Of a stretch of DNA of 64,000 nucleotides, positions 5,014 through 64,000 are shown piece after piece. The notes under the pieces were generated by a model. The model was not told the origin of the DNA, did not search any database, and saw nothing but the letters and a program-made list of their open reading frames with translations. A program made the translations under genes and the position numbers. The stretch lies in contig OX638340.1 in assembly GCA_951812955.1 (NCBI GenBank), forward strand, positions 1,184,001-1,248,000. Direction: 5' to 3'. The stretch is from an uncultured Gemmatimonadota bacterium (GTDB taxonomy: Bacteria; JAAXHH01). The stretch's first letter is position 1. Each line of letters begins with the position of its first letter.

Positions 5014-5244
5014 ATGATCGGCGATATCGGCATGCAGGAACTGATGGTGATCTTCCTGATCGTACTGCTCCTGTTCGGTGCGGACCGGATTCCTTCTCTT
5101 GCGAGGGGACTGGGTAAAGGTGTGCGGGAATTCAAGCGGGTCGTAAACAATGCGAATACTGAAATCCAACGCGCAATCGACATCGACGAAAAGGAACCGC
5201 CTCCTCGAAAGCCTCCGCCGACAAAGGAATTGGATCGGTCATAG
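5014..5244 (+). CDS. tatA: Twin-arginine translocase subunit TatA/E
   Basis: MIGDIGMQELMVIFLIVLLLFGADRIPSLARGLGKGVREFKRV aligns with the TatA N-terminal transmembrane helix plus amphipathic helix (FG…G..G..I..FK motif). GGAG RBS at 5001-5004. Confidence 0.8.
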   Translation: MIGDIGMQELMVIFLIVLLLFGADRIPSLARGLGKGVREFKRVVNNANTEIQRAIDIDEKEPPPRKPPPTKELDRS

Positions 5245-34990: not shown

Positions 34991-35074
34991 ACTGGTAATT
35001 CGGCCTTTACTCTCTCGATTAGTTCACGGACCTGGGACTGAAAGTAGCTTATATTAAAAGTTACAATCAGGTTT

Positions 35075-35097
35075 TTCGATTCCCACACGCTCCCCCA
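35075..35097. repeat. Right copy of the tRNA-Sec 3'-end direct repeat (attR-like)
   Basis: ttcgattcccacacgctccccca is identical to 34236-34259 apart from one missing C. Confidence 0.7.
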
Positions 35098-35115
35098 ACC
35101 AAAAAGGAATAACCC

Positions 35116-35724: not shown

Positions 35725-35882
35725 ACCGACTAACCTGAACACAACGATGGATAGAAACCAAAAAGCTGTGCTATCTATACAACGTGCAAAACCCCCTCAG
35801 AGTATAGGTTTGTTTTCTACACTACACAAATTGGGACAGGTCTGCATTGCGGGGTTAATATGATCACATCCATGCAGAAAAC

Positions 35883-36566: not shown

Positions 36567-36717
36567 GCACCTGCCTCCAGTTCGCCAGATCTATGAAGGT
36601 CGCCTAAGGTTTCGCCGGAGACGTCTTCAAGCATTTGCATCAGTGCGCTGCGACTCGAGGGGCGATACCACCTGACTTTCGAGTCGTCCAACGTGCGAGT
36701 CATAACGGCTACATCAT

Positions 36718-37863: not shown

Positions 37864-38182
37864 GATCTACCACCTTAAGCTTACTCTCGAAGGTCCATAG
37901 ATCTTCTACTGAGTTAGAATACGATGCACTCCGCCAGAAGGTATCAAAATCTAGATTCAAATATACATAGTCATTCTTTCAATTACAATCTCGTTGACAG
38001 TGTTGAATCTTGGTACGTCAGAAAGGTCATGAAGACACATGAGAAGATGACTCGGTTGAACCTACAAGTTTACCATTTATTTATTGTTGTAGTTCAGGCT
38101 AATTTCAATCTGTGTTATGGGCATAAAGGAAGATCCAAAAACAGTGGAAGATGAACAAAGCTCACTGAGACATGAAGGTTCT

Positions 38183-47845: not shown

Positions 47846-48868
47846 ATGACTATTCCCGTTGCCCAGGGTCCGCCGTTACCGTTTGAGCCCAGCCCCTACA
47901 TCGCGCTTACTGAAACGCAACAGAGCCGGTTCGACGAAGACGGCTTTATCCTGATTGAGGATGCCCTCTCGCCGAGCCACGTCGAACGGCTGCTCAAGGT
48001 CGTCGACACGCTCTACGACAATTTCCACAGGACCCACGGTACCCCGCCCGACGCGCCTTACCAGATTCGCAACGCCCTGATTCACCACGAGGAGCTTTTC
48101 GCGTTGATCGAATACCGGAAGATCCTGTCGCTGGTCGTGGACGTCATGGGGGTAAACATACAGATCCGCACTTCCCACGTGGACGTCCGTCCTCCCATGA
48201 AAGATCACATGGGTGGAGAACTGGGGGCCAAGGGCAGCTTTTTCCCATGGCATTCGGACGCACCCAATTACGGCTATCCCATTACCAACGGCCGGATTCC
48301 CTTTTTAGAAGTGAAAGTCGGGTACTACCTCACCGATCTCACCGAGCACAACAGCGGCGCCATATGCGTGGTGCGGGGCAGTCACAAGCTTTCGCCGGAA
48401 CTGATCCACGATCCGGATTACCAGATCGACCCGATGGACATCGTGGAAGTGCGTGTCAGGCCGGGTACCGCCATGGTCTGGCGCACGGCGCTCTGGCACT
48501 GCCTGGCCCCCAATCTCTCCGGGCGAACCCGCAAGTGCCTCTACTACGGTTACAACCACCGCTGGGCACGACCCGGGGACTACGACCGCCAGGACTCCGA
48601 CCTGTTGGCCCGTTGCACACCCGTTCAGCGCCAGCTGCTGGGTTCCAACACCACGGAGGACGGAGTGGTTTACCAGGACGGCGATCCGGCCCATCCGGCT
48701 TCCAGGTACTGGCGGCCCGAAACCGCGGACGTACCCCTGGAAGCATGGGCTGATAGTCAATATCGGAAAAAACACCGCAGGGAACGGAAGCTATGGGAGA
48801 AACGGAATAGGCTGCCCCCCGGCGCCGTGGGCGCGCCAATAGAGCAGGAGGAAAGCCTCCTGGATTAG
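47846..48868 (+). CDS. PhyH-family Fe(II)/2OG dioxygenase
   Basis: PWHSDAPNYG, GAICVVRGSHK and ALWHCLAPN give the His-x-Asp…His facial triad. AAGGAG RBS. Confidence 0.8.
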   Translation: MTIPVAQGPPLPFEPSPYIALTETQQSRFDEDGFILIEDALSPSHVERLLKVVDTLYDNFHRTHGTPPDAPYQIRNALIHHEELFALIEYRKILSLVVDVMGVNIQIRTSHVDVRPPMKDHMGGELGAKGSFFPWHSDAPNYGYPITNGRIPFLEVKVGYYLTDLTEHNSGAICVVRGSHKLSPELIHDPDYQIDPMDIVEVRVRPGTAMVWRTALWHCLAPNLSGRTRKCLYYGYNHRWARPGDYDRQDSDLLARCTPVQRQLLGSNTTEDGVVYQDGDPAHPASRYWRPETADVPLEAWADSQYRKKHRRERKLWEKRNRLPPGAVGAPIEQEESLLD

Positions 48869-48947
48869 AGCCGAGACGGGGACCGGAAGGAAACCCTCAA
48901 ACCGCAAGTCATCCGCGAATAAGGGTGTATTTACATCAGAGGAAACC

Positions 48948-49679
48948 ATGACCGAAGCCGAAATCTTCGAATTCGACCTCAATGGCTATATCATGTACCG
49001 GAACGTTCTAACCCGGGACCAGGTCGACCACATGAACGGGGTGCTCGACGAACACCTTACAGAAGAATCCTTCAATTTCCCATTTCTTCACCTGGACCCG
49101 ATGTTCATGGAAGTCATGGCCCTGCCCCGGACGCTGAACATACTCGGGACGATGATCGGGGACTGGATGCGCCTGGACCATGCCTACGGGCTCCAGATGG
49201 ATACGCTCTCCGAGGAACGGGGCGATACAAGACCAAACCTCCACGGCGGACCGCTGGAGGACAACGGCGAGCACCATTACCAGTGGTTCAATGGAAAGAT
49301 GTACAACGGCCTGACCGTCGTCATGTATGCTCTCGAAGACGTGAACCCCGGTGACGGCGGCTTCATCTGCGTACCGGGAAGCCACAAGGCCAACATGGAC
49401 TTCAAACCCGCGGTGAATTCGCATATCGTCGTCAATCCTGCCTTCAGGTCCGGCGATATGCTCATCTTCACGGAAGCGCTGGTCCATGGGACGAACACGT
49501 GGACCTCGTCGAACAAGCGGCGATCCCTGCTATACAAGTACTCCCCGGGACATTCCACGTGGGCGATCCCGGAAAATTGGGAAAAGCTGCGGGCCCTGGC
49601 GGCCAACGATCTGCAGCGCGACCTGCTCAGGGCGCCCAGCATCGAGGGCCGGACGCCCGTTGAGATACCGAAAGCGTGA
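48948..49679 (+). CDS. PhyH-family Fe(II)/2OG dioxygenase (tandem paralog A)
   Basis: MTEAEIFEFDLNGYIMYRN…NPGDGGFICVPGSHKAN…EALVHGT. Confidence 0.85.
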   Translation: MTEAEIFEFDLNGYIMYRNVLTRDQVDHMNGVLDEHLTEESFNFPFLHLDPMFMEVMALPRTLNILGTMIGDWMRLDHAYGLQMDTLSEERGDTRPNLHGGPLEDNGEHHYQWFNGKMYNGLTVVMYALEDVNPGDGGFICVPGSHKANMDFKPAVNSHIVVNPAFRSGDMLIFTEALVHGTNTWTSSNKRRSLLYKYSPGHSTWAIPENWEKLRALAANDLQRDLLRAPSIEGRTPVEIPKA

Positions 49680-49774
49680 GGGCGTAGAGCATCTGGCGGG
49701 GGCCGCTCCTTCGAACGCTTCCCGCGACTGAAAACACCCGATGTTGCGCGACGCGGGGCATTCCGGAGGAACCC

Positions 49775-50506
49775 ATGACCGAAGCCGAAATCTTCGAATT
49801 CGACCTCAACGGATACATCATCTACAAGGACATGCTGTCCCGGGACCAGGTGGATCACATGAACGGAATCCTGGACGGGCACCTCGCCGACGATGCCCAC
49901 GGCTTCCAGTTCCTTACACTCGATCCGGTATTCATGGAACTCATGGCCCATCCACGCACGCTGCGGATCATCCGCACGATGATCGGTGAATGGATGCGTC
50001 TGGACCATGCGTACGGTATGCAGATGGACAGACAGTCCGTCGAACGGGGCCATGTGAAACCGAATCTTCACGGCGGCCTGCGCCACGACCACGGAGAACA
50101 CCAGTACCAGTGGCACGATGGAAGGATGTACAATGGACTCATCGTGGTCATGTACGCACTCAAGGACGTCCACCCTGGCGACGGCGGCTTGATCTGCGTC
50201 CCGGGAAGTCACAAGGCCAACATGAATTTCCGGCCACCGGTGGATTCCCACCTAGTGGTGAATCCCTCCTTCATGGCGGGCGACATGCTCATCTTCACCG
50301 AAGCGCTGGTCCACGGCACCACCACGTGGACTTCCGACCAGCGGCGGCGCTCCTTGCTCTATAAGTATTCGCCCGGGTACTCCGCCTGGGCCTCGGCCGA
50401 CGGGCTGGACGACGCCCGTGCCCTGGCAACTGACGATGTCCAGCGCGACCTGCTGAGGCCGCCCAGCGTCGGAAGACGGACGCCCGTGGAGATCCCGGAT
50501 GAGTGA
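49775..50506 (+). CDS. PhyH-family Fe(II)/2OG dioxygenase (tandem paralog B)
   Basis: MTEAEIFEFDLNGYIIYKD… with the same motifs. The first 36 nt are identical to the 48948 paralog. Confidence 0.85.
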   Translation: MTEAEIFEFDLNGYIIYKDMLSRDQVDHMNGILDGHLADDAHGFQFLTLDPVFMELMAHPRTLRIIRTMIGEWMRLDHAYGMQMDRQSVERGHVKPNLHGGLRHDHGEHQYQWHDGRMYNGLIVVMYALKDVHPGDGGLICVPGSHKANMNFRPPVDSHLVVNPSFMAGDMLIFTEALVHGTTTWTSDQRRRSLLYKYSPGYSAWASADGLDDARALATDDVQRDLLRPPSVGRRTPVEIPDE

Positions 50507-50654: not shown

Positions 50655-51470
50655 ATGAACGTGCGCGACGAATTCCGTTACAACCGGTTGACCTGGGAGG
50701 ATATGAACGAGGCGATCGCCATGCAGAAGGTGGTGGTCCTTCCCACGGGTTCAACCGAGCAGCATGGCAAGCACCTTCCGCTGGACACGGACGCGTTCCT
50801 CGTCGAATCGGTCTGTCACGAACTGGGGCGGCGGATCCCCGACCGCGTACTCGTTCTGCCGACGGTCTCCTACGGACTCAACCTGCACCACATAGACTTT
50901 CCCGGTACGATCCACATCGAACCCGAAGTGTTCATCGCCTTCTGCCTGAACATCACCAAAAGCGTCGCCTACCACGGTTTCGAGAAGATCCTGCTCGTTA
51001 ACGGACATGGTTCGAATGCCCCCATGATCGATCTGGTCGCCCGGAAGACGGTGCTGGCCACGGAGTCGCTTTGTTTCGCGGCCAATTACTTCACTTTCCT
51101 GGTGGACGCCTTCAACGAGGTGAAGGAATCAGAGGTGATGGCACACGCAGACGAACTGGAGACCTCATTGTACCTCCACCTCGCCGCCGATCGCGTTAAG
51201 ATGGACAAGGCCGCGCCGGATAACGATCGGGTGGGGAAGTACTGCTCATCGGACAGCACCGGTACCGTGCGCTTCAACGATTTCTGGGGAAGATGGACGG
51301 GCCTCGGGGTCCACGGCGACCCCACGCCGGCGACGGCGGAAAAAGGCGAGATCATCTTCAACGCGTCCGTGGAGGGCCTCGTCGAATTGATCGACGACAT
51401 TCACAAATGGCCGATCGAAAAGCGGCGCGATCAGCACACGGGGCCGGTTCAGAAGGGGATAAGGTGGTAA
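50655..51470 (+). CDS. Creatininase-family amidohydrolase
   Basis: VVLPTGSTEQHGKHLPLDTD and LLVNGHGSN are the conserved metal-binding motifs of creatinine amidohydrolase-family proteins. Confidence 0.85.
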   Translation: MNVRDEFRYNRLTWEDMNEAIAMQKVVVLPTGSTEQHGKHLPLDTDAFLVESVCHELGRRIPDRVLVLPTVSYGLNLHHIDFPGTIHIEPEVFIAFCLNITKSVAYHGFEKILLVNGHGSNAPMIDLVARKTVLATESLCFAANYFTFLVDAFNEVKESEVMAHADELETSLYLHLAADRVKMDKAAPDNDRVGKYCSSDSTGTVRFNDFWGRWTGLGVHGDPTPATAEKGEIIFNASVEGLVELIDDIHKWPIEKRRDQHTGPVQKGIRW

Positions 51471-51638
51471 GGTTCTGCCTGGCCGTGCGCAGTGACGCAG
51501 GGAGACGCCACCCTGTTCGGCTCGCATAAAACCGGCGGCAAGCCGACTTCGCGTTCGACAGAAACCGGCGGCGAGCAGACAGTGCTTTCGCTTGAAACTG
51601 GCGGTGAGATTAAAGCATTCGATTGCGCGATTTAACAG

Positions 51639-52418
51639 CTAGTAGCCCAGGAATCCCCCGTCCACCAACCATGTCGCTCCCGTAACGAAGCCTGCATCGT
51701 CGCTGGCCAGGAACACGGCCACGCGGCCGATTTCCTCGGGCCGGCCCCGGCGGTCCAGGGGCGTATGGCGAAAGTACTTCCCCGATGCGCCTCGACTGAC
51801 GGCGTCTTCTCTCGGATTATCGCTCTGCTCGGTGTGGATATCACCCGGCGCAATACTGTTCACCCGGATCCTGTGACGGGCCAGTTCGATCGCGGCCGAC
51901 TTGGTGAGCCCATCCAGGCCCGCCTTGCTGGCACAGTAGGCGGATGCGCCTTCCTGGGCCGCAAACTGGGCCACGGACGAGATATTGATAATGGCGCCTC
52001 CCACATCCCGGTCAATCATCCGGCGGGCCGCCTCCTGCGTCCCGATGAACGCGCCGGTAAGGTTGATGTCGACGACGTTGCGCCAGTGCTCGTCCGTCTC
52101 CTCCATGAAGGGCCGCAACTCCAGTGACATTCCGGTCAGCGCGGCATTGTTGATCATCACGTCTACCGGACCCAGCAGGTGTTCCGTCCGGTCCAGCAGC
52201 GCCGCTATGTCCTCGCGGCGGCGCACGTCGCACCGTTGCGCGTGGACGGAAAAGCCCTGACTCCTGAACCGCTCGGCCTCGTGCTCGGCGATCTCGACCC
52301 GACGCTGCGCAATCATCACCGCGGCCCCTGCTTCGGCACAACAGCGGGCAATACCGAGACCGATGCCGGTGCCGCCGCCGGTGACGACTACGGTTCTTCC
52401 CTTCAACCGGTCATTCAT
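51639..52418 (-). CDS. SDR-family oxidoreductase
   Basis: TGGGTGIGLGIA cofactor motif, NNAAL, and the catalytic YCASKAGL (YxxxK). Confidence 0.9.
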   Translation of the reverse strand: MNDRLKGRTVVVTGGGTGIGLGIARCCAEAGAAVMIAQRRVEIAEHEAERFRSQGFSVHAQRCDVRRREDIAALLDRTEHLLGPVDVMINNAALTGMSLELRPFMEETDEHWRNVVDINLTGAFIGTQEAARRMIDRDVGGAIINISSVAQFAAQEGASAYCASKAGLDGLTKSAAIELARHRIRVNSIAPGDIHTEQSDNPREDAVSRGASGKYFRHTPLDRRGRPEEIGRVAVFLASDDAGFVTGATWLVDGGFLGY

Positions 52419-53667
52419 CGGTTACACCTCCCGCTTCCCTTCTCGCATCGCTCTCCATCAAAGACGCGACCTCTTTGGCGACAGCTTCGATCACCGGGAA
52501 ATCCCTTTCCTCCAGTGTACGTACGTCGAGCAGAAATCGGTTCCCCGCCAACCTGCCGAACACTGGTGGCGATTGTCGTCTGAACGCCGCGGCTAGTTGC
52601 CGGTTGGTCCATCCGTCGGGACGCAGCGCGACGGCGCGGGAAGGCAGTTGCTGGACCGGCAGGGCGCCGCCTCCGATTTCGGCGAGGGATTCCTCCACGG
52701 TCACTTCGACGCGGCAACCGAAACAGGCTGCGATGCATTCCGCGAGTCTTCGCGCCTTTAAATCGAGCGCTTCCATCGTCGCTGCGATCATGCCCGTAAC
52801 GGGGTGAGAATCCGCGAGCATAGCCGGATTATGAAAGAGCTCGAGCGTAGCCTGAAGGGCGGCATAGACCATCTTGTCGGCGCGAAAGGCCCGCATCAGC
52901 GGATCCTTTTTCATCTTGTCGAGCAAATCCCTCCGGCCGACGATGATTCCGGCCTGGGATCCGCCCAGCAGTTTGTCGCCACTGAAACAAACCACGTCGA
53001 TTCCGCGGCCGAGCGCGTCCGGGACGGTATATCCAATGTCCAGGCCGTGGTCTTCAAGGCCGACGAGGGCGCCGCTTCCCTGGTCGTACACGACAGGTAT
53101 ATCCCTTTCCCGACCCAACCTGGCCAGTTCCTCGAGTGGTGTGGAGACATCGAGGCCGGCAATATCAAAGTTGCTTCGGTGTACCGCCATGATAAGCGCC
53201 GTCTTTTCGGTGAGGGCGGCCCGGTAGTCTTCCGCTACCGTGTAATTTGTCGTACCGACGCCAACCAGGTCGACCCCACCCGCGGCCATGACGTCGGGCA
53301 TGCGGAAGGACCCGCCGATCTCCACCAGTTGGCCCCGGGAGATGACGACCTCCCCGTCCAGGGCGAGCGCGTGCAGGATCAGCATCACCGCGGCGGCGTT
53401 GTTGTTCACGACGATGGCGGACTCGGCCCCGGTGAGGGAGCAAAGCAGATCGGAAACCAGGTCGTGCCGAGAACCCCGCTTGCCCGTCTCCGCATCAATC
53501 TCGAGCGTACAGAATCCTTCGATTATGTCAGCCACTGCCCGCCGCGCATGCTCGGACATGACGGCCCGTCCCAGACCGGTGTGCAGGATCACGCCCGTGG
53601 CGTTCACCGCGGGTGCCAGTGCACTGATCGAACGTCCGCCTCTGGTTGGATTGGCCCGGTCTGTCAT
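52411..53667 (-). CDS. selA: L-seryl-tRNA(Sec) selenium transferase SelA
   Basis: PLP fold-type I enzyme with SelA-specific layout: N-terminal tRNA-binding region, then …VVNNNAAAVMLIL…, with the PLP lysine in FSGDKLLGG. Confidence 0.88.
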   Translation of the reverse strand: MTDRANPTRGGRSISALAPAVNATGVILHTGLGRAVMSEHARRAVADIIEGFCTLEIDAETGKRGSRHDLVSDLLCSLTGAESAIVVNNNAAAVMLILHALALDGEVVISRGQLVEIGGSFRMPDVMAAGGVDLVGVGTTNYTVAEDYRAALTEKTALIMAVHRSNFDIAGLDVSTPLEELARLGRERDIPVVYDQGSGALVGLEDHGLDIGYTVPDALGRGIDVVCFSGDKLLGGSQAGIIVGRRDLLDKMKKDPLMRAFRADKMVYAALQATLELFHNPAMLADSHPVTGMIAATMEALDLKARRLAECIAACFGCRVEVTVEESLAEIGGGALPVQQLPSRAVALRPDGWTNRQLAAAFRRQSPPVFGRLAGNRFLLDVRTLEERDFPVIEAVAKEVASLMESDARREAGGVTDE

Positions 53668-53812: not shown

Positions 53813-54406
53813 CTACCATCGGCCGGCAATCACTCCGGCCATGCTGGCCTTGAATTCCACCCAGGGAAAGGCCGGACCGGGATCGATCTTTCGATCCGGC
53901 GCGATATCGCTGTGACGTACGACGTTGTCCAACGGGATCTTGTAGCGTTCGACGAGGTGGCCGGAAAGCGAGACCACTTGCTCGACCTGACCGGCCGGAT
54001 AGGGCGTCCACCAGTCTCCCTCCGCTGCGATGGGCGACGGTCCGCCATAGGGCGTACTGAAATCCTCGGGCCAGCAGAAGAAGCTTCCGTTCTCCTTCTT
54101 CAGGCGTCCCCAGTTCACGATCTCGATGCCGAGTGACCGTCGATTGCAGCCTTCCCGTCCCCGCCAGGAACTCGTCCCGCAGTGCCAGGCGCAATCTTCG
54201 TCCCGAACCATCTGCAAAAGGGTGCCGTCGAGCCCTACGATATAGTGGCAGCTGACACGCCGATCCGGGTCCCGGAAGATCGCGACGCATTCATCCAGCG
54301 ACGGACCGTCCGTGTAATGGAGCACGAGCATATCAATCTGTTCATCCTCGCGGCTCGAAGCGTACAGGGCCGGGTAAAACGGTATTGCGGCAAGAAACTC
54401 CGACAT
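53813..54406 (-). CDS. N-acetylmuramoyl-L-alanine amidase (Amidase_2 / AmpD-like)
   Basis: HYTDGPSLDECVAIF, SCHYIVGLDG and AWHCG motifs of the PGRP/AmpD zinc amidase family. Confidence 0.85.
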   Translation of the reverse strand: MSEFLAAIPFYPALYASSREDEQIDMLVLHYTDGPSLDECVAIFRDPDRRVSCHYIVGLDGTLLQMVRDEDCAWHCGTSSWRGREGCNRRSLGIEIVNWGRLKKENGSFFCWPEDFSTPYGGPSPIAAEGDWWTPYPAGQVEQVVSLSGHLVERYKIPLDNVVRHSDIAPDRKIDPGPAFPWVEFKASMAGVIAGRW

Positions 54407-54627: not shown

Positions 54628-57600
54628 GTGACCAACGACTCCTTCCAAGAACCATCGCTACGGGACAGATACCTCGAAGAACGGGGGACGGTCTTTCTCA
54701 CCGGCATACACGCCATCGTCCGTTTTCTCGTGGACAAGCAGCGGCGCGACCTGAATTCCGGCGGTCCCATAAGAAGCAGTTTCATATCCGGTTACGAAGG
54801 ATCGCCGCTGGGCGGGCTCGACCTCGAAATTCGCCAGCAGGCATCCCTGCTAAATGAAGCGGCGCCTTTTGTGCACCAGGCGGCGGTCAACGAGAAAACG
54901 GCGGCCGCGGCGGTACATGGCAGCCAGTTCGAAGGCGGCGTGGACGGGTTCTGGTACGGTAAAGCCCACGGCGTAAAATGGGCCCTAGACGAGTTCAGCC
55001 TGGCCAACATCGCGGGGACGGGCAGGGACAGCGGCGTGGTCCTCTTTGCCGGGGACGATCACATGGCGAAGAGCTCCGGTTACCCCGCCAGCAGCGAACA
55101 GGCCCTACGAGACGCGCGCATACCCGTATTCTACCCTTCGACGGTCTCCGAGGTCGTCAGCTACGGACATCACGCACTCGCACTGAGCCGGTACGCCGGC
55201 GTCCTCTGCGGACTTAAACTCGTCACCCCCATCTGCGACGGTGCGGAGACGGTGGATATCGATCCGGACCTTCCTGCGGTTCTGCTTCCCCCGGTCGGCC
55301 CGGTCGGCCAGGTCGGCACGGACGGACACCTTTTCGAGAAACACTTTCACCGGGTGGTCATTTCTACCCAGTCTGTCCCCTTCGAAGAAGAGCTTGCCAC
55401 GGTGCGCCTGGATATCGCCGGCGAGTACGCACGGCTGAACGGGATCGACACGGTCGATAATTCGGAATCGGACAGTTCTCTCGGTATTGTAGCGACTGGA
55501 AAGAGTTACGCGGATATCAAGCAGGCGCTAAGACTGGTGCGCCTCGAGGACCGTATACCGATCCTGAAACTGGGCGTGATCTACCCGGTAAACCGGCAGA
55601 CCATCCGGGATTTCGCCCACGGATTCCAAAACGTGCTGGTCGTCGAGGAAAAAGGGCCCTTCGTGGAAGAAGCGGTAGCCCAGGCCCTCGTAGGCACCGG
55701 CGTATCCAACGTATACGGAAAACGCGGACCAGACGGGCAGCACCTCGTGCCCGCCTACGGAGAACTGAATCCCGATCTGCTCACCCTGCGCCTTGGTCCG
55801 ATACTGCAGGGGATCTTCCCGACGGCTCCCATTTACGACCGCCTGGAAGAACTGAAAACCATCGAGGAAAGGGATCCCGGCACCTTCCTGCGCCGAACCG
55901 CCCATTACTGTCCGGGTTGTCCGCACAGCGTATCGGCCCGGGCGCCTTCCGGGGAAGTCGCTGGCGGCGAGATCGGCTGCTCCTCTCTGGACGCTTACAT
56001 CGAGGCGGACGGCAGAGGCGTCCGGTACATCCCCACCATGGGGCTGGGCGGCGCCATCTACAACGGGATGTTCCCCTTCAACGGGAACGAACACCTGTTT
56101 CAGAATATCGGTGACGGCACCGTGCTGCACAGTGGATTGATCACGCTATTCAGTTCCATATCCCACGGAGCCAACATCACCTACAAGATCCTCTGGAACC
56201 ACGTCGTGGCCATGACCGGCGGGCAGGGCATCACGGGACAGCCGACGCTGGACGATTTCACGCTCATACTCCTGGGCATGGGCGTGAGAGACGTCACGGT
56301 CGTCAGCAAATTCCCGGAGCGGGTGTCGCTCAAGCGCGCCCGGGCCGCGGTGAATACGGATCAGCGTCTCCTGCTCGAACCACGGGACCGGCTCCAGTCC
56401 GCCCAGGAAAGCCTTTCCCGGAAGCCGGGCGTAAAGGTGCTGATCTACGACCAGGAATGCGCCACGGAGTACCGCAGACGCCGCAAGCGTGAAGACCTTG
56501 CCCCGGACCGGTACGTTTACATCCACGAAAGGGTGTGCGAAGGGTGCGGAGACTGCGGTCAGCAGTCCATGTGTCTTGCGCTCGAGCCCAGGCAGACCGA
56601 GTTCGGACCCAAGACCGCCATACTCCAGTCGGCGTGCAACCAGGACCTCTCCTGCCTCAAGGGCGATTGTCCCTCATTTATCTCAGTCGAACCGGTCGGG
56701 GACAGCAGGCCCGTGAAAAAGGAATGCCCGGTTCTCGGCGAAACCGACCTGGATGAGCCTGCACGCAAAGCGGCCATAGCGGGCGAATACGCCATACACC
56801 TCATTGGGATCGGGGGCACCGGTGTCGTGACCGCGGCCCACCTGCTCGCCTTCGCAGCACTTTTTGACGGGAAGAAGGTGAGTGAGATGAACCGCACCGG
56901 ACTGGCGCAGAAGGGTGGTCCGGTGGAATCGCCCATCGTGCTGGGGGACAGGGAAATTCCTCCGTCCAGTTACATCGCGGCCGGCCGGTGCGACCTCTAC
57001 CTGGCGGCGGACATCGCCGGTGCGGTGAATCCCCTTAATCTGCAGGTCGCCTCCTCGGACAGAACCGTCGCCGTGGTAAGCCGTTCCGGCGTCCCGACCG
57101 CACAGATGGTATACGATCCCCAGGTGCCCGGCGCTGACGTCCCGGCCATGGAAGCGCTTATCGACCGCCATACCCGGTCGAAGAACAATGTCTACATCGA
57201 TGCGCAGGACTACGCGATGAAGCTCTTCGGCAACCACATCGTGGCGAACGTGTTTCTCCTGGGCGCAGCCTACCAGGCCGGATACATCCCCCTGCGGGGC
57301 GGGAGTATCGAACGCGCCATCCGTTTGAACGGACAGGCGGTCGACGCCAATCTCCAGGCGTTCCGATGGGGACGCATGGCCGTACTCGACCCGGCCCGGC
57401 TGGACGAAGCCGTGGCGGTGCCAGAACCCGATTCGGACACCCTGATTCAGCGTTACGAGCGCCAACTCGGCCACAAACTGTCACGAATCTACAAGGCGCT
57501 GATCGACCGGATACCCGTTGCCGAGGAATCCTTCCGAAAGTCATGGGTGACTCGCGTGGCCGAACTGATCGCATACCAGGACACGACACTCGCCGAACGG

Positions 57601-58185
57601 TTCGTCGACAGGATTGAACGGATCTTCGATGCCGACAAACGGACAGGGGGATCGGACCGCGGATACCTGCTCACTTCGCACGCGGTGTTCATGCTGCACA
57701 AGCTCATGGCCTACAAGGACGAGTACGAGGTGGCCCGGCTGCTGACGGACCCGACCGAAACCGGCGTCGCAGACCGTTTCGACGGTCCGGTCAAGGTGTC
57801 TTACCATCTTCACCCGCCGCTGTTGCGAGCCTGGGGACTCGATCGTAAACTCCGGCTGGGGCCATGGTTCAGGCCGATGCTTCGGATCATGGCACCTTTC
57901 AAGCGGCTGCGGGGAACCCGATTCGATCCCTTTGGATATACCGCGGCCCGGCGTGAGGAACGTGAACTCGTGACCTGGTATGAATCGTTGTTGTCCCAGG
58001 CCTTCGACTCACTCACCGCGGAGAACTACCCCGAAGTCTCCGAACTGCTGCGGCTGCCCGACGAGATCCGCGGCTACGAACAGGTCAAGCGCCGCTCTGT
58101 GATCAGGGTGAAGAAGAAGGCGGATGAAATACTCGCCGGCCTCCTTCGCCGGGACGAGAGCCTGAAAGCAGAAAGCCGGCCCTGA
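54628..58185 (+). CDS. Indolepyruvate:ferredoxin oxidoreductase-family protein (fused IorA-IorB type)
   Basis: 1185 aa. N-terminal ERGTVFLTGIHAIVRFL (TPP-dependent 2-oxoacid:ferredoxin oxidoreductase), a central cysteine cluster (CEGCGDCGQQSMC… CLKGDCPSF), and a C-terminal IorB-like domain. Confidence 0.85.
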   Translation: MTNDSFQEPSLRDRYLEERGTVFLTGIHAIVRFLVDKQRRDLNSGGPIRSSFISGYEGSPLGGLDLEIRQQASLLNEAAPFVHQAAVNEKTAAAAVHGSQFEGGVDGFWYGKAHGVKWALDEFSLANIAGTGRDSGVVLFAGDDHMAKSSGYPASSEQALRDARIPVFYPSTVSEVVSYGHHALALSRYAGVLCGLKLVTPICDGAETVDIDPDLPAVLLPPVGPVGQVGTDGHLFEKHFHRVVISTQSVPFEEELATVRLDIAGEYARLNGIDTVDNSESDSSLGIVATGKSYADIKQALRLVRLEDRIPILKLGVIYPVNRQTIRDFAHGFQNVLVVEEKGPFVEEAVAQALVGTGVSNVYGKRGPDGQHLVPAYGELNPDLLTLRLGPILQGIFPTAPIYDRLEELKTIEERDPGTFLRRTAHYCPGCPHSVSARAPSGEVAGGEIGCSSLDAYIEADGRGVRYIPTMGLGGAIYNGMFPFNGNEHLFQNIGDGTVLHSGLITLFSSISHGANITYKILWNHVVAMTGGQGITGQPTLDDFTLILLGMGVRDVTVVSKFPERVSLKRARAAVNTDQRLLLEPRDRLQSAQESLSRKPGVKVLIYDQECATEYRRRRKREDLAPDRYVYIHERVCEGCGDCGQQSMCLALEPRQTEFGPKTAILQSACNQDLSCLKGDCPSFISVEPVGDSRPVKKECPVLGETDLDEPARKAAIAGEYAIHLIGIGGTGVVTAAHLLAFAALFDGKKVSEMNRTGLAQKGGPVESPIVLGDREIPPSSYIAAGRCDLYLAADIAGAVNPLNLQVASSDRTVAVVSRSGVPTAQMVYDPQVPGADVPAMEALIDRHTRSKNNVYIDAQDYAMKLFGNHIVANVFLLGAAYQAGYIPLRGGSIERAIRLNGQAVDANLQAFRWGRMAVLDPARLDEAVAVPEPDSDTLIQRYERQLGHKLSRIYKALIDRIPVAEESFRKSWVTRVAELIAYQDTTLAERFVDRIERIFDADKRTGGSDRGYLLTSHAVFMLHKLMAYKDEYEVARLLTDPTETGVADRFDGPVKVSYHLHPPLLRAWGLDRKLRLGPWFRPMLRIMAPFKRLRGTRFDPFGYTAARREERELVTWYESLLSQAFDSLTAENYPEVSELLRLPDEIRGYEQVKRRSVIRVKKKADEILAGLLRRDESLKAESRP

Positions 58186-58269
58186 AAAGGACCGGCTCCC
58201 TACCTTAATACTGTCACACTTCAGTTTCGGTTCAGTGCGAGAGGCTTCGCGGCCTCCTGGCTCTGCTTC

Positions 58270-59484
58270 TCAGCTGCTCACCAGCACCTTCTTGAGTGCG
58301 GCGATGAAGGCCTCGTTTTCCGCCTGCAGGCCGGAGGTGACTCGCAGCCAGTTATTCATCCGCCAGCGCCGCTTGCCGTTGCCGACGAGTACGTTGTACT
58401 CTTCGAATAGTTTGCGGGTAACCTCGTCCGCGTCCTTGCGTACGTTGACGAGCATGAAACTGGACTGGCTGGGCACGTACTCGAGTCCCATCTCATCGAA
58501 CTGGCTCATGAGATAGTCATGACCGTCCCATGCGGCCTTCCGTGCACGGTCCTGGTAATCTCCATCCTCTATACAGGCCTCTGCGGCGACCACCGAGAGC
58601 GAACTGACCCGGCCGCCCTTGTTGTCCTCGAGCTTTTCGATAACATGGGGCCGCGCCAGGCCGTAGCCGATACGCAGGCCGGCCATACCCATGATCTTGG
58701 AAAAAGTACGGGTCACAATGACGTTTTCATGGTCAAGGATCAGCGGTGCCGCGCCGATGCGGTCCTGGGGATTTCGGGCGAACTCGATATAGGCCTCGTC
58801 CACGAAGACCATGACGTCGGAGGGTATCCCGCTCACAAACTTCTTGAGGTCTTCGAAAGGCGCGATGATCCCTGTCGGATTTCCCGGAGAGGTTACGACC
58901 ACGACTCGCGTATTCTCGGTGACGGCCGCCTTCATGGCATCGAGGTCCTGGTGGAAATCCCGGGTTGTGCGTACCAGGCGTGCACTGGCGCCGTAATTCC
59001 GGGCCGTACGTACCACGCCGCCGTAACCGGGCGCGGCCTCGATCATCTGTCCGCCGTCACGCAGGTAGGCCGACGCGATGGCAAAGAGTACCTCGGACGA
59101 TCCGCATCCGAGGGTGACCCACGGTTCCGGCCCTTCAGAGGAGTTGTTGGAAGGAATGACGACCGGCAGTCCGTGCCGTTCCGCGATCTGGCCGTAGAGA
59201 CCCCGGCCCCGGTAGTACCGGTTGAACTTGTAGACGTACTGCATTATGGCCTCGACGGCGCGGGGCGACGGACCGATCGGGTTCTCGTTGCTGCTCAGCC
59301 GGACTAATCCCTCGGGTACACCCCAACCGCGGACGGGCCGCGCACGCGGGCCCGCCACCATCTGGGCCACGGCTTCGTAACTTCCCAGGGAAGCCGCACC
59401 GGCCCCGATCGCAAGCCCCCTGAGAAACTTCCTTCTCGTGAACCCGGATGCTCCCAGATTCACCGCCTTTATCATATTCGACAT
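58270..59484 (-). CDS. Class I/II (HisC-like) PLP aminotransferase with a twin-arginine (Tat) signal peptide
   Basis: N-terminal TRRKFLRGLAIGAGAASLG Tat motif. LSSNENPIGPSP aminotransferase motif. 404 aa. Confidence 0.8.
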   Translation of the reverse strand: MSNMIKAVNLGASGFTRRKFLRGLAIGAGAASLGSYEAVAQMVAGPRARPVRGWGVPEGLVRLSSNENPIGPSPRAVEAIMQYVYKFNRYYRGRGLYGQIAERHGLPVVIPSNNSSEGPEPWVTLGCGSSEVLFAIASAYLRDGGQMIEAAPGYGGVVRTARNYGASARLVRTTRDFHQDLDAMKAAVTENTRVVVVTSPGNPTGIIAPFEDLKKFVSGIPSDVMVFVDEAYIEFARNPQDRIGAAPLILDHENVIVTRTFSKIMGMAGLRIGYGLARPHVIEKLEDNKGGRVSSLSVVAAEACIEDGDYQDRARKAAWDGHDYLMSQFDEMGLEYVPSQSSFMLVNVRKDADEVTRKLFEEYNVLVGNGKRRWRMNNWLRVTSGLQAENEAFIAALKKVLVSS

Positions 59485-59528
59485 AACGCCATCCTTTGAT
59501 CAGATGCTCGATACGGTCCCGCGAACGA

Positions 59529-60743
59529 TCAGCTGCTTACCAGCACCTTCTTGAGTGCCGCCATGAAGGCCTCGTTCTCCTCCTGCAGGCCGGACGTCAC
59601 CCTGAGCCAGGTGTCCATTTCCCAGCGGCGCTTCCCGTTGCCGACCATCACGTTGTACTCTTCCCGAAGCTTGCGGACGACTTCGTCCGCGTCCTTGTGC
59701 ACGTTTATGAGCATGAAGCTGGACTGGCTGGGGACGTAGTCGATCCCCATCTCGTCGAACTGGCTGGAGAAGTACTCCTGTCCGTCCCACGTCACCTTTC
59801 GCGCCCGGTCCTGGTAGTCGTGATCTTCCATTCCCGCAGCCGCGGCGTTGGTCGACAACATACTGGGCCGGCCGCCCTTGTTCTGGTTCAGCTTTTCGAT
59901 GACCTCGGGACGCGCCAGGCCGTAGCCGACACCCAACCCCGCCATGCCCATGATCTTGGAAAATGTACGGGCAACGATCACGTTCGGGTGGTCCAGAATC
60001 AGCGGCGCAGCGCCAATCCGATCGGCGGGATTCTTCGAGAACTCGATATAGGCCTCGTCGACGAATACGATCACGTCCGAGGGAACCTCCTGGACGAACT
60101 TCTTCACGGCGTCCGAGGGAACGAGCACGCCGGTCGGGTTGCCAGGATTCGTTATGACCACCACCCTGGTGTTCTCGGTAATGGCGGACTTCATCGCATC
60201 GAGGTCCTGCTGGAAGCCGCTTGCCAGCGGAACCCACTTCACCGTACCGCCGTTCGGCTCCGCGACACGGAAGACGCCGGCGTAACCGGGCGTCGCCTCC
60301 ACCACCTCGGCCCCGTCTCGCAGATAGGCGGATGCGACGGCATAAAGCACTTCCGACGATCCGCAGCCCAGGGTGACCCAGGCGCCGGCCGGCGTGAAGG
60401 CATTGGGAGCCCACTCCACCACGGGCAGTCCGTGCCGCTCGGCGATCCTGGCATAGATGTCCCTGTTCCGGTTGTATCGATTGAACGAATACACGTTTTC
60501 CAGTACGGCTTCCACCGCCCGCGGCGACGGTCCGATTGGCATTTCGTTGCCGCTCAGTCGGACGAGTCCTTCGGGTACGCCCCAGCCACGCACGGGCCGT
60601 GCATTGGGACCGGAGATCATCTGCGCCACCGCCTCGTAACTTCCCAGCGAAACGGCGCCCGCGCCTGCCATAATGCCTTTGATGAAGCCTCGCCGCGAAA
60701 ATCCGGAAGGGGCCTCCATCGTAGTTTCAGCCCTGTCTGCCAT
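59529..60743 (-). CDS. Class I/II PLP aminotransferase with Tat signal peptide (tandem paralog)
   Basis: SRRGFIKGIMAGAGAVSLG followed by LSGNEMPIGPSP. Colinear with the 58270 gene and the same length. Start taken at ATG 60743 (MADRAETTMEAPSGF…). Confidence 0.8.
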   Translation of the reverse strand: MADRAETTMEAPSGFSRRGFIKGIMAGAGAVSLGSYEAVAQMISGPNARPVRGWGVPEGLVRLSGNEMPIGPSPRAVEAVLENVYSFNRYNRNRDIYARIAERHGLPVVEWAPNAFTPAGAWVTLGCGSSEVLYAVASAYLRDGAEVVEATPGYAGVFRVAEPNGGTVKWVPLASGFQQDLDAMKSAITENTRVVVITNPGNPTGVLVPSDAVKKFVQEVPSDVIVFVDEAYIEFSKNPADRIGAAPLILDHPNVIVARTFSKIMGMAGLGVGYGLARPEVIEKLNQNKGGRPSMLSTNAAAAGMEDHDYQDRARKVTWDGQEYFSSQFDEMGIDYVPSQSSFMLINVHKDADEVVRKLREEYNVMVGNGKRRWEMDTWLRVTSGLQEENEAFMAALKKVLVSS

Positions 60744-60954
60744 GATAAACTCCTTGATGGATTGAGTGTGCAGGCTGCGGTGAAGTTCCCGGAATGCAGA
60801 ACAAACCATGAGCCTTCGCGGCCTGTAATAGTAATATACCGGGAATTCGATCCTGTAATTCAATCAATTTAATGCGCCGGAGGCAACATGACAATATAAT
60901 CGTAAGCGCAATGGATCGAGCCGGTTGACGGGACTTGCCAGGCTACTGCTCAAT

Positions 60955-61977
60955 TTACGCCGCGCACAGGTAGTCGTCCACTTCGGCCAGTCCCATGCCT
61001 TGGAGCGCCTGGCGTATCAGCTTCCGCGCGCCCCTGGAGGAAACGGCGACGACGAGCATTGGACGACTATGGCGGGACCAGGCGTCCATCAGTCCACCGG
61101 GACCGATCACCGGCGCTCCCCGCAGTATGCCGCCGATCTTACGGGGAGAAATATCGACAAAGGCATCGACCGTGCGGCCCATGCGGACAAGGTGCTTCGA
61201 CAGCCTGCGGCCGGTCTGGCCCGCGCCCCACACGATCAGACCGTCCCGGCCGTCGAGAGGGCCGTCGATGAGAAACCGGGCCTTGACGCGGAGGAAGTTC
61301 TCCACGGAGTACCTGGAGTCCGTTCTCGTCAACCGCCCGTCGTGCTCCCGCCAGTATAACAGGACCTCCGGTACCTTGGCGAACCGCAGGCCCGCTGCGT
61401 GGCAGCGAAGCCACAGGTCGTAATCCTCCGGCCAGCCGAGATCCCGGTATCCTCCGAGCTTCACGAAATCATCACGGCGCACCATGGCCGACGGGTGGGC
61501 GACAGGGCTTTCTATGTATATCTCGCGGGCGATGTCTTCGGGCTCGACAAGGCTGTTCAACCAGGCTTCGTAGATCTTCATGCCCTCACCAACCGACCCG
61601 TCGGCGAAGGTTTCCACGAGCGACCCGGCAACGCTGATATCCGGTCTGGATTCCAGCAACTCCGCCTGCCTGGCAAGTCGACTTGGATGCATGCGGTCAT
61701 CGGCGTCCATGCGGGCGACATACGTTCCTTCGCATACCGATAATCCGCGGTTCAAGGCCTCGACCAGCCCAACGCGGCCGGCGTTGACCGGCTTGATTCT
61801 CCGGTCCCCACGCCGCCAGGCCTCCAGGATCATCCCGCTGTCGTCGTCCGAACCGTCGTCGACCGCGATGACCTCGAAATCGGCCAGCGTCTGCCCGGTG
61901 ATGCTTTTCAATGCATCGGGAAGCGTTCCGGCGGCATTGTATACAGGCATCAGGATGGATACACGAGGTGGGGACAT
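60955..61977 (-). CDS. Family 2 glycosyltransferase
   Basis: N-terminal VSILMPVYNAAGTLPDALKSI…AVDDGSDD…ARMDADD (GT-A fold with DxD). Confidence 0.85.
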   Translation of the reverse strand: MSPPRVSILMPVYNAAGTLPDALKSITGQTLADFEVIAVDDGSDDDSGMILEAWRRGDRRIKPVNAGRVGLVEALNRGLSVCEGTYVARMDADDRMHPSRLARQAELLESRPDISVAGSLVETFADGSVGEGMKIYEAWLNSLVEPEDIAREIYIESPVAHPSAMVRRDDFVKLGGYRDLGWPEDYDLWLRCHAAGLRFAKVPEVLLYWREHDGRLTRTDSRYSVENFLRVKARFLIDGPLDGRDGLIVWGAGQTGRRLSKHLVRMGRTVDAFVDISPRKIGGILRGAPVIGPGGLMDAWSRHSRPMLVVAVSSRGARKLIRQALQGMGLAEVDDYLCAA

Positions 61978-62043
61978 GGCGTAGTTACGAGGAATGGTAA
62001 AGGTGCGGGTACGGCCGTTGGTGAGCGCACCCTCCGGACGGAC

Positions 62044-64000
62044 CTACCCCTTGACCACGATATTGAGCAGCTTGTCCGGCACGAAGATGTTCCGGATCGA
62101 TTCCTTGCCGTCCGTCCAATGACGCACGCGTTCGCTGGCGAAGGCGGCCTGCTCGATTTCCTCGCGGGACCTCCCGGGCGGCAATTCGAGCCTGTCGCGT
62201 ACCCGGCCGTTGATCTGGATGACGTATTCGATCGTGGCCGATACGATCAGGGACGGATCAAATTCCGGCCAGGGCGCGACGCAGATCATGCCCTCGCGGT
62301 CCATGCGTGACCACAGTTCCTGGGTGATAAACGGCGCGAAAGGCGCGGCCAACTGGAGCAGCGTGCAGACGGCGTCGCGATGATGTACCTGCGCGTTCTG
62401 CAGGCCGTTGAGCAGCTCCATGAGGCGCGCGATGGCCGTGTTGTACTGGAACGTCTTCATGTCCTCTGTGACATCGCGGGTCCTGCCGTGCAGCAACGCG
62501 AGCAGTTCGGGGTCTGCCACCGGGGCTGCGCTGAAATCGGTACCTGTGACGTAACGCCACAGACGGTCATAAAACCTGCGCACGCCGTTGATGCCCGCGT
62601 CCTGGAAATCGCCGCCCACCTGGAAAGGTCCCAGGAACATGAGGTAGGTGCGGAAGGTATCGGCCCCGTAATCGTCCAGGTATTCGTCGGGATTGATGAC
62701 GTTGCCCTTGGACTTGCTCATCTTCGCGCCGTTCCGGATGATGGTCCCGTGGGCCCGGAACTTCTTGAAAGGCTCGGAGAAGGAAATGAGTCCGATGTCA
62801 TGCAGCGCCATGGTGATGAACCGGGTGTACATGAGGTGCAGCACAGCGTGCTCGTTGCCCCCGATATACATGTCAACGGGCAGCCATCGCTCGGTGGTCT
62901 CCGGGTCGAAAACCACGTCCTCCCGTTCCGTACTGGGATAGCGGAAGAAGTACCACGCCGAATCGAGGAAGTTGTCGTTTACGTCGGTTTCCCGGGTCGC
63001 GGGGCCGCCGCACTCGGGACAGGTGGTATTCAAAAAGGACGGATCGCGCGCAAGCGGACTGCGGCCCGTACCGTCCGGCTTGAAATCCTCCTCGTGGGGC
63101 AGTACGACGGGTAACTGGTCTTCCGGAACGGGCACCACGCCGCAGTCGCCGCAGTGTATCATGGGAATGGGCGGTCCCCAGTAACGCTGGCGGCTGATGC
63201 ACCAGTCTCGCAGCCGGTAGTTGACCTGGCGCCTGCCAATACCGCTATCTTCCAGCCAGTCGGTGACCGTACGCACGCCCACGGTGCTGTGTGTCCCGTC
63301 GAAGGGCCCGCTGTTGATCATGGTCCCTTCGCCGGCATAGGCCTCCTCCAGGCCGGTGGCGCCGTCGTGTCCATTCGTCCTGTCTTCCGTTCCGCTGATC
63401 ACCTGGACGATCGGCAGATCGAAAGCCCTGGCGAACTCGAAGTCACGGCTGTCATGGGCCGGCACGGCCATGATGGCGCCCGTCCCGTACGTCATCAGCA
63501 CGTAATCGGAAATCCAGATCGGTATTCTGGCGTCGTTCACCGGGTTGACCGCGTAGCCGCCCGTGAACACACCGGTCTTTTCGCGGGTGACGTCCTCGCG
63601 TTCGATAGCCGTCTTTCGACCACTCTCCCTGACGTATTCCTTGACGTCCACACGCTGTTTTTCCGTGGTTACGGCGTCAACCAGCGGGTGTTCCGGCGCG
63701 AGGACCATATAGGTGGCGCCCCAGAGCGTGTCCGGCCGCGTGGTGAATACGCTGAGCTGCTCGTCGTGGTCCGCCAGGCGGAAATCCACCTCGGCCCCTT
63801 CGCTTCGGCCGATCCACCTGCGCTGCGCGGTCTTGGTCGTCTCGGACCAGTCGATCGTCTCCAGGTTCTCGAGGAGTTGTTTGGCGTATGCCGTAATCCG
63901 GAAGAACCACTGGCGCATGTTTCGTTGTTCGACCAATGCACCGCATCGTTCGCATGCTCCGCCCTCGGCCTGTTCCGCCGCCAGCACCGTGTTACAGGAT
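62044..64000 (-). CDS. leuS: Leucyl-tRNA synthetase, partial; the N-terminus lies beyond the window end
   Basis: Contains the KMSKS loop (KMSKSKGN) and the editing/CP1 and zinc-knuckle regions (…CERCGALVEQR…). The frame is open to position 64000. Confidence 0.93.
   Translation of the reverse strand, partial: SCNTVLAAEQAEGGACERCGALVEQRNMRQWFFRITAYAKQLLENLETIDWSETTKTAQRRWIGRSEGAEVDFRLADHDEQLSVFTTRPDTLWGATYMVLAPEHPLVDAVTTEKQRVDVKEYVRESGRKTAIEREDVTREKTGVFTGGYAVNPVNDARIPIWISDYVLMTYGTGAIMAVPAHDSRDFEFARAFDLPIVQVISGTEDRTNGHDGATGLEEAYAGEGTMINSGPFDGTHSTVGVRTVTDWLEDSGIGRRQVNYRLRDWCISRQRYWGPPIPMIHCGDCGVVPVPEDQLPVVLPHEEDFKPDGTGRSPLARDPSFLNTTCPECGGPATRETDVNDNFLDSAWYFFRYPSTEREDVVFDPETTERWLPVDMYIGGNEHAVLHLMYTRFITMALHDIGLISFSEPFKKFRAHGTIIRNGAKMSKSKGNVINPDEYLDDYGADTFRTYLMFLGPFQVGGDFQDAGINGVRRFYDRLWRYVTGTDFSAAPVADPELLALLHGRTRDVTEDMKTFQYNTAIARLMELLNGLQNAQVHHRDAVCTLLQLAAPFAPFITQELWSRMDREGMICVAPWPEFDPSLIVSATIEYVIQINGRVRDRLELPPGRSREEIEQAAFASERVRHWTDGKESIRNIFVPDKLLNIVVKG

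Follow-up and report, generated by a model that had tools for sequence, protein, structure and literature searches.

Predicted Tat-exported, HisC-like aminotransferases encoded by a tandem gene pair in an uncultured Gemmatimonadota bacterium

Two pyridoxal 5'-phosphate (PLP) enzymes, PtaA and PvdN, are known to be exported with bound PLP by twin-arginine translocation, the Tat pathway (PMC6206403), and the signals of PvdN and of the aminotransferase PA2531 have been validated as Tat signals (PMC6085387). A review of pyoverdine biosynthesis describes PLP chemistry in the periplasm as surprising and suggests that PtaA homologues in bacteria that do not produce pyoverdine may serve other periplasmic pathways (PMC6206403). 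In our literature search, PtaA and PvdN of fluorescent pseudomonads were the only characterized Tat-exported PLP enzymes found, and nothing relevant was found on further periplasmic aminotransferases or on Gemmatimonadota. Here, we analyzed a tandem pair of minus-strand genes, W2 (the upstream paralogue) and W1 (the downstream paralogue), in a 64,000-nucleotide stretch of an uncultured Gemmatimonadota bacterium (contig OX638340.1, positions 1,184,001 to 1,248,000; hereafter, the window). W2 and W1 probably form a co-transcribed pair that encodes precursors of periplasm-facing PLP transaminases from an uncharacterized branch of the HisC-like (subfamily I-beta) fold. We observed the sequence features of these proteins, their conservation and the selection on them, the fold, and the Tat genes; we infer export, a cleavage site, a dimeric state, a reaction, and a substrate class.

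PtaA (P. fluorescens A506; P. aeruginosa PA2531; profile NF051461) resembles W1 and W2 in being a HisC-like class I/II PLP transaminase with a twin-arginine signal, and it is exported folded with its cofactor (PMC6206403). However, W1 and W2 score only 166.6 and 171.5 bits against NF051461, for which the equivalog cutoff is 500, and the match begins past the signal. In further contrast to PtaA, no pyoverdine or nonribosomal peptide synthetase genes are present among the scanned neighbors of W1 and W2, the host is Gemmatimonadetes-like, the two genes are in tandem, and W2 lacks the arginine located eight residues after the catalytic lysine (K+8). PvdN (P. aeruginosa PA2394) is, as predicted for W1 and W2, a Tat-exported periplasmic PLP enzyme (PMC6206403, PMC6085387), but it turns the glutamate side chain of pyoverdine directly into succinamide, without transamination (PMC6206403). 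PvdN was not among the matches of W1 and W2, and no direct comparison with PvdN was made.

Predicted twin-arginine signals of the tandem pair

As the first-pass annotation of the window had stated, two open reading frames (ORFs) of 404 amino acids (aa) are present in tandem at these coordinates. Both are on the minus strand, and their products are 72% identical over residues 13-404. The genes, their ribosome-binding sites, and their predicted signal peptides are as follows:

59529..60743, minus strand: W2, 404 aa, predicted Tat-signal HisC-like class I/II aminotransferase, "G-type" (PLP-phosphate Arg replaced by Gly)
58270..59484, minus strand: W1, 404 aa, predicted Tat-signal HisC-like aminotransferase, "R-type" (canonical PLP-phosphate Arg kept)
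60750..60755, minus strand: Shine-Dalgarno sequence AAGGAG, spacer of 6 nt to the W2 ATG (minus-strand read caAGGAGtttatcATG)
59492..59497, minus strand: Shine-Dalgarno sequence AAAGGA, spacer of 7 nt to the W1 ATG (minus-strand read tcAAAGGAtggcgttATG)
60624..60743, minus strand: predicted Tat signal peptide of W2, codons 1-40, with SRRGFIKG, h-region GIMAGAGAVSLGSY, and AVA|Q
59365..59484, minus strand: predicted Tat signal peptide of W1, codons 1-40, with TRRKFLRG, h-region GLAIGAGAASLGSY, and AVA|Q

The W1 and W2 N termini (MSNMIKAVNLGASGFTRRKFLRGLAIGAGAASLGSYEAVAQM and MADRAETTMEAPSGFSRRGFIKGIMAGAGAVSLGSYEAVAQM) both contain the classical Tat motif, hydrophobic region, and AxA-like context that had been proposed for them from the sequence alone. 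The two arginines are residues 17 and 18 in each protein, and residues 16-22 (TRRKFLR and SRRGFIK) agree with the consensus S/T-R-R-x-F-L/I-K/R. The motif is followed in both by an uncharged run of 14 residues with a mean Kyte-Doolittle hydropathy of 1.06 to 1.09 and by AVA at residues 38-40, as expected of a weakly hydrophobic, uncharged h-region of at least 12 to 13 residues with an AxA-type site. We judged the signals by hidden Markov models (TIGR01409 and PF10518) and by hand-written rules; both proteins passed the Tat-signal model TIGR01409 (W1, 22.7 bits; W2, 19.0 bits; cutoff, 16.7). The motif, the h-region values, and the AVA|Q site are comparable to those of validated Tat signals of P. 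aeruginosa, including that of PA2531 (PMC6085387). In the AlphaFold model of W1, residues 1-47 are without confident structure, and residues 1-38 have predicted local distance difference test scores (pLDDT) of less than 50.

A translation start beyond the arginine pair is excluded. Shine-Dalgarno sequences precede the upstream ATG codons of both genes. Codons 13-41, compared with the orthologous genes in the related locus L005, have a ratio of nonsynonymous to synonymous substitution rates (dN/dS) of 0.10 (W1, 0.105) with a dS of ~0.8 to 1.1, and the ratio for the mature part is 0.09 to 0.10; because the two are equal, the signal segment is translated and constrained by purifying selection. 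Several homologues in which the arginine pair is intact have Leu, Ile, or Thr at the position of Met42, the only plausible downstream start. The W2 reading frame is open upstream as far as a TTG at 60863, and it is the ATG at 60743 that yields 404 aa.

The SRRxFLKG motif is not a chance match, being under purifying selection and present in 87 of the 116 full-length homologues, at identities as low as ~35%. It is missing in the canonical cytoplasmic HisC sequences that rank after those homologues in the match list. The AVA|Q site is largely kept in the close clade, with the conservative variants AAA, AIA, ALG, and VLG.

Both tatA and tatC had been reported in the window, and we confirmed both:

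5014..5244, plus strand: tatA/E-type gene, 76 aa (PF02416, 62.4 bits), located by motif search
29507..30763, minus strand: tatC, 418 aa (PF00902, 207.9 bits), with the TatC domain at residues 15-227

The TatC domain is followed by an acidic tail of ~190 residues that is rich in Asp, Glu, Gly, and Ser, which is unusual for TatC.

Taken with the TIGR01409 scores, the Shine-Dalgarno sequences, the dN/dS of 0.10, and the unstructured N terminus, the presence of TatA and TatC supports the prediction of Tat-exported, periplasmic transamination. Each precursor would fold, bind PLP at Lys263, and probably dimerize in the cytoplasm. TatA and TatC would then recognize the S/T-R-R-x-F-L/I-K/R signal and export the folded holoenzyme, after which signal peptidase I would probably cleave behind AVA40. 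The mature enzyme of ~364 residues would pass amino groups between an amino compound in the periplasm and a 2-oxo acid, which would parallel PtaA of Pseudomonas.

Aminotransferase identity and relatives

Both proteins match Aminotran_1_2 (PF00155) far above the gathering cutoff of 19.7 (W1, 167.5 bits, E = 6e-49; W2, 155.3 bits, E = 3e-45), with the core motifs LSSNENPIGPSP and LSGNEMPIGPSP downstream of the signals. The AlphaFold model of W1 (pLDDT, 83.8) has a well-defined HisC-type fold from about residue 55, and its best matches in the PDB are the HisC-type structures 3ffh and 3ly1 (template modeling [TM] scores of 0.76/0.88; root mean square deviation of ~2.1 Å). The entry 3ly1, a structural-genomics structure of a putative HisC from Pectobacterium atrosepticum, is also the best sequence match with a solved structure (E = 2.7e-36, ~28% identity). 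Residue 17 of the 3ly1 chain aligns to residue 59 of the query, so that the crystallized construct begins approximately at the predicted mature N terminus, which is suggestive only.

The best NCBIfam match is hisC (TIGR01141), and both proteins fall below its equivalog cutoff of 276.55 (W1, 220.6 bits; W2, 221.5 bits). The profile of the uncharacterized PRK09105 subfamily (NF006580) aligns end to end, including the signal region (protein residues 15-401 to positions 5-371 of 375). However, the scores of 217.9 and 218.1 bits for the two proteins are far from the cutoff of 444, and W1 and W2 are not members. None of 10 further Tat-type relatives reached a curated cutoff, that of PRK09105 included.

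To assign residue equivalences, we aligned W1 and W2 to E. coli HisC (sequence from NC_000913.3). The equivalents of Tyr55, Asn157, Asp184, Tyr187, Ser213, Lys214, and Arg335 are present in both proteins, and the predicted Schiff base lysine, which aligns with Lys214 of E. coli HisC, is encoded as follows:

58696..58698, minus strand: codon for the catalytic Lys263 of W1 (motif RTFSK), invariant in the alignment
59955..59957, minus strand: codon for the catalytic Lys263 of W2, from the alignment with E. coli HisC

W1 and W2 have in common with HisC (TIGR01141; E. coli structures 1fg3 and 1gew; M. tuberculosis HspAT, 4r8d) the fold, the N-E-N-P-x-G-P-S-P motif, and, in W1, the PLP-site residues. 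In contrast, the lid tyrosine (Tyr20 in E. coli, Tyr25 in M. tuberculosis) is replaced by Gly and Asp85/Asn103 by Ser in W1, W2, and the whole Tat-type clade, and HisC itself is cytoplasmic and has no Tat signal. The roles of these HisC residues have been described (PMC4703992). Canonical HisC proteins in the same alignment keep the Tyr, and an Asn or Asp, at the two positions; indels in the lid part of the alignment make the assignment of Tyr20 approximate. At a third position that was compared, W1, W2, and the Tat-type clade have Tyr and canonical HisC has Phe. With hisC scores below the cutoff and no equivalent of Tyr20 or Asp85, W1 and W2 are not HisC, and their substrate is predicted not to be histidinol phosphate. 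Arg381, which both proteins keep, would anchor a carboxylate or phosphate group. The HisC-like core named in the first-pass annotation is therefore borne out for the fold (PF00155 and AlphaFold) but not for the function, and the two proteins appear to represent an uncharacterized branch of the subfamily I-beta fold.

A neighbor-joining tree of 117 sequences, of the kind that had been suggested as a check against HisC, placed the Tat-type proteins in one clade beside, and separate from, cytoplasmic HisC. The arginine pair is present throughout this clade in all but two members, one of which is an N-terminally truncated gene call (P0065) and the other a protein with a hydrophobic N terminus without the arginine pair (P0097). 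An exhaustive search covered 1.84 billion cluster representatives (50%-identity clusters). The whole W1/W2 clade falls into a single such cluster (representative P0044), and of the nearest 143 representatives that are full length, 58 (~40%) begin with a Tat-like N terminus. Tat-exported PLP enzymes had been called uncommon; this is true of characterized enzymes, namely, PtaA and PvdN, but not of sequence space, where the Tat-exported HisC-like kind appears to be common but understudied rather than rare.

A more distant Tat-type group (P0066-P0079, ~41 to 43% identity) is found on other contigs, some of them annotated Gemmatimonadetes. When a genome collection was scanned with generic HisC motifs, the matches listed included only relatives of at most 38% identity, mostly canonical hisC. 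Three loci, L011 (on a 3.72-Mb chromosome), L012, and L013, carry distant Tat-signal HisC-like paralogues of 36 to 38% identity, with the motifs SRRGFIAG, PRRRFLQQ, and SRRHFLQG. The 1.78-Mb contig of L005 and L007 encodes three members of the close clade, a W1-like protein (P0016), a W2-like protein (P0024), and one linked to metH (P0061). The family of Tat-type paralogues may have expanded inside single genomes.

The PLP-phosphate arginine and the history of the pair

In fold-type I class I/II enzymes, the PLP phosphate is bound by an arginine at K+8, whose conservation in subfamily I-beta extends from archaeal to mammalian homologues (PMC4703992); it corresponds to Arg222 of E. coli HisC and Arg240 of M. 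tuberculosis HspAT. W1 and W2 differ at this residue:

58672..58674, minus strand: W1 codon 271, CGT (Arg), equivalent to Arg222 of E. coli HisC
59931..59933, minus strand: W2 codon 271, GGT, encoding Gly instead of Arg at the aligned K+8 position

The set of catalytic and cofactor-binding residues typical of subfamily I-beta is complete in W1, and in W2 it is complete but for this arginine (Gly271). In the 117-sequence alignment, K+8 is Gly, Ser, or Ala in 22 of 22 W2-type sequences and Arg in all others. The arginine is likewise present in all but a handful of 149 cluster representatives, where the exceptions come from a motif located by regular expression. Near the lysine, only two positions differ consistently between the W1-type proteins and all G-type proteins, position 258 (K-5; Thr versus Ala/Ser) and position 271 itself. 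A group-wise comparison revealed no new Arg or Lys that might compensate in the G-type proteins, where only position 258 and the variable position 191 differ. Coupling between positions 258 and 271 is weak, since Ala258 also occurs with the K+8 Arg in other Tat-type lineages. The conserved split points to a functional difference between R-type and G-type proteins, and what sets W1 and W2 apart is likely their cofactor handling or their kinetics, not the known specificity positions.

The pair is preceded on the same strand by leuS (62044-63999) and a family-2 glycosyltransferase gene (GT2; 60955-61977). The order leuS-GT2-W2-W1 recurs in five related loci (L005, L092, L102, L103, and L105), with L102 and L103 being 97 to 98% identical to the window, and in three others (L106, L110, and L111) a single gene with Gly or Ser at K+8 occupies the leuS-GT2 position. 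In the neighbor-joining tree, W1 nests within the Gly/Ser/Ala clade. Given these single genes and this nesting, the simplest reading is that one Arg-less gene at leuS-GT2 was duplicated in tandem, after which W2 would have kept the ancestral state and W1 would have regained the arginine. Gene conversion was considered as a source of the similarity between W1 and W2 and was rejected: W2 is the closest relative of W1 in every 50-residue window and dS is saturated, with no sign of recent conversion or mosaicism.

Tandem pairs that join a member of the R-clade to a G-type gene are also present in L004, L097, and L108, and their origin is independent of that of W2-W1. Genes with Gly, Ser, or Ala at K+8 stand alone at five loci (L009, L095, L106, L110, and L111). 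Members of the sister clade (P0045-P0065, 50 to 55% identity) usually occur in one copy that is divergent from metH (L001, L007, L093, L100, L107, and L109). Single-copy clade members divergent beside a B12-dependent metH were observed in eight loci altogether, these six together with L009 and L095, with a partly shared synteny of lipase_GDSL, MGMT, CBM9, and metH. A search of seven related loci at the Rfam gathering score, metH intergenic regions included, found no riboswitch or other RNA.

Surroundings, alternative readings, and significance

The best homologues of the two proteins are annotated as belonging to metagenome-assembled genomes of Gemmatimonadetes, and a Tara marine metagenome is the source of one of the syntenic contigs. 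W1 starts 44 nt past the W2 stop codon, so co-transcription of the two genes is likely. One candidate promoter was found upstream of the pair, within the 211 nt that separate the glycosyltransferase gene from W2:

60866..60894, minus strand: sigma-70-like promoter match TTGTCA-17-TAAATT, weak evidence

The promoter scan found this one site versus 0.8 expected in shuffled sequences, which alone is not significant. The sole match of the terminator scan is inside the W1 coding region, below chance expectation, and no riboswitch or other RNA family was found upstream of the pair by Rfam in window positions 57500-62200 at E values up to 1.

Convergent on W1 is a gene for a fused protein of 1,185 aa of the indolepyruvate:ferredoxin oxidoreductase (IOR) family (54628-58185, plus strand; PRK13030, 1,084 bits; DUF6537 tail). 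It was rejected as a functional partner: it is convergent, and it is absent in L005 though kept in L092, L102, L104, and L105. An orthologous gene of the PhyH family (Fe/2-oxoglutarate dioxygenases), without a signal peptide, is the divergent neighbor of one or more genes for Tat-type aminotransferases in three different lineages (L009:6916-7764, L097:4439-5272, and L093:6689-7521, the last split into ORFs of 105 aa and 172 aa), and it may be a functional partner there. The window itself contains three PhyH-family genes in series (47846-50506), including two tandem paralogues of 243 aa (48948-49679 and 49775-50506) with near-identical N termini. At 50655-53667, genes of the creatininase, short-chain dehydrogenase, and SelA-like (PF03841, 445 bits) families form a cluster, with an Amidase_2 gene at 53813-54406; L092 shares the synteny of this cluster. 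The SelA-like protein is possibly not a genuine selenocysteine synthase. G+C content decreases to 0.44 to 0.49 at 28000-29500 and 34000-38000, compared with ~0.60, and these stretches, the first of which contains an ORF of 450 aa (28057-29409, minus strand), may be acquired islands.

Several observations weigh against the reading of W2 and W1 as a pair of exported and processed transaminases. The Pfam signal model PF10518 (TAT_signal) scored below its gathering cutoff of 22.7 for both proteins (W1, 16.3 bits, E = 0.009; W2, 19.6 bits, E = 0.0008). The c-region contains Glu37 and is conserved unusually strongly (YEAVAQM), as is atypical of signal peptides that are cleaved. W2 is without a residue conserved across subfamily I-beta (PMC4703992), so its activity is not assured. 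Co-localized periplasmic substrate-binding proteins had been suggested as a clue to follow, but genes for periplasmic binding proteins, transporters, or siderophores are not consistent neighbors in the window and the related loci, and nothing therefore points to a substrate. Finally, recycling of pyridoxamine 5'-phosphate (PMP) would need an unproven periplasmic pool of 2-oxo acids, which is an open point for PtaA as well (PMC6206403).

Some of these observations would fit a Tat signal that targets the enzymes but stays uncleaved, so that the N-terminal segment would hold them on the outer side of the inner membrane in a Rieske-like manner. Conservation of the c-region and its flanks (SYEAVAQMV/I) goes far beyond that of the usual cleaved signal, and dN/dS is as low in the signal region as in the enzyme core. 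We nevertheless consider tethering improbable, as the 14-residue uncharged stretch, with a mean hydropathy of ~1.1, has little length or hydrophobicity for a stable anchor across the membrane, a canonical AVA|Q site is present and largely kept in close relatives, and the start of the 3ly1 construct near the predicted mature N terminus is suggestive of processing. It is less likely still that W1 and W2 are ordinary cytoplasmic histidinol-phosphate or aromatic aminotransferases whose arginine pair is untranslated (with a start at Met42) or a relic. The best NCBIfam match to hisC, the annotation of homologues as "histidinol-phosphate aminotransferase," the in-frame ATG just after the AxA site, and the IOR-family gene next to W1 could all be cited for that view. 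However, the Shine-Dalgarno sequences at the upstream ATG codons, the constraint on codons 13-41, and the replacement of Met42 in several homologues with the arginine pair all argue against it, as do the subcutoff hisC scores, the loss of the Tyr20 and Asp85 equivalents, and the orientation and patchy retention of the IOR-family gene.

The enzymes could instead be exported and carry out another PLP chemistry, either a CobD-like decarboxylation or, as for PvdN, an oxidative one. The fold is shared with the threonine-phosphate decarboxylase CobD (TIGR01140, 125 to 128 bits; 1lkc/1lc5, TM scores of 0.73 to 0.75) and with the cyclodehydratase GntC (122 bits), PvdN is a precedent for unusual PLP chemistry in the periplasm (PMC6206403), and the cofactor pocket of W2 is remodeled. 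Aminotransferase models score much above those for CobD and GntC, however, and W1 keeps all residues typical of I-beta transaminases, which makes a different chemistry unlikely. The two proteins might also be obligate partners in a heterodimer, with the Arg-less W2 as its catalytically altered subunit. Enzymes of subfamily I-beta are dimers with active sites lined by both chains (PMC4703992), and tandem pairs of an R-type and a G-type gene have arisen twice, once as W2-W1 (the window and five related loci) and once as R-clade plus G-type (three loci). This arrangement also appears improbable: genes with Gly, Ser, or Ala at K+8 occur singly as well, each protein has its own Tat signal, and W2 keeps every other catalytic residue and has a dN/dS of 0.09.

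A more far-reaching proposal builds on the same pairs, namely, that the Arg-less lineage of W2 is a functionally separate class of PLP enzyme in the periplasm whose cofactor-phosphate pocket has been remodeled, that selection restored the arginine of W1 so that the cell has both, and that the recurrent, independent pairing reflects a required two-enzyme or heterodimeric amino-transfer system. We regard this as speculative and doubt that it is correct; if it were true, the Arg-less pocket would possibly alter the retention or exchange of PLP and PMP outside the cytoplasm or accommodate a different B6 vitamer.

Should W1 and W2, read as exported transaminases, prove to be ordinary PtaA-like tailoring enzymes, their description would amount to routine annotation. 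The documented cases of periplasmic transamination come down to essentially one, that of PtaA in pyoverdine tailoring, and how an amino acceptor is supplied outside the cytoplasm is an open question. The group of HisC-like proteins with a Tat signal is large, spanning Gemmatimonadetes, Latescibacteria, Zixibacteria, and others, and no curated family covers it. With their contrast at the PLP-phosphate arginine, W1 and W2 make up a compact pair that could reveal what such enzymes act on (exported metabolites or compounds of dissolved organic nitrogen, for instance) as well as the way in which PLP enzymes cope in the periplasm.

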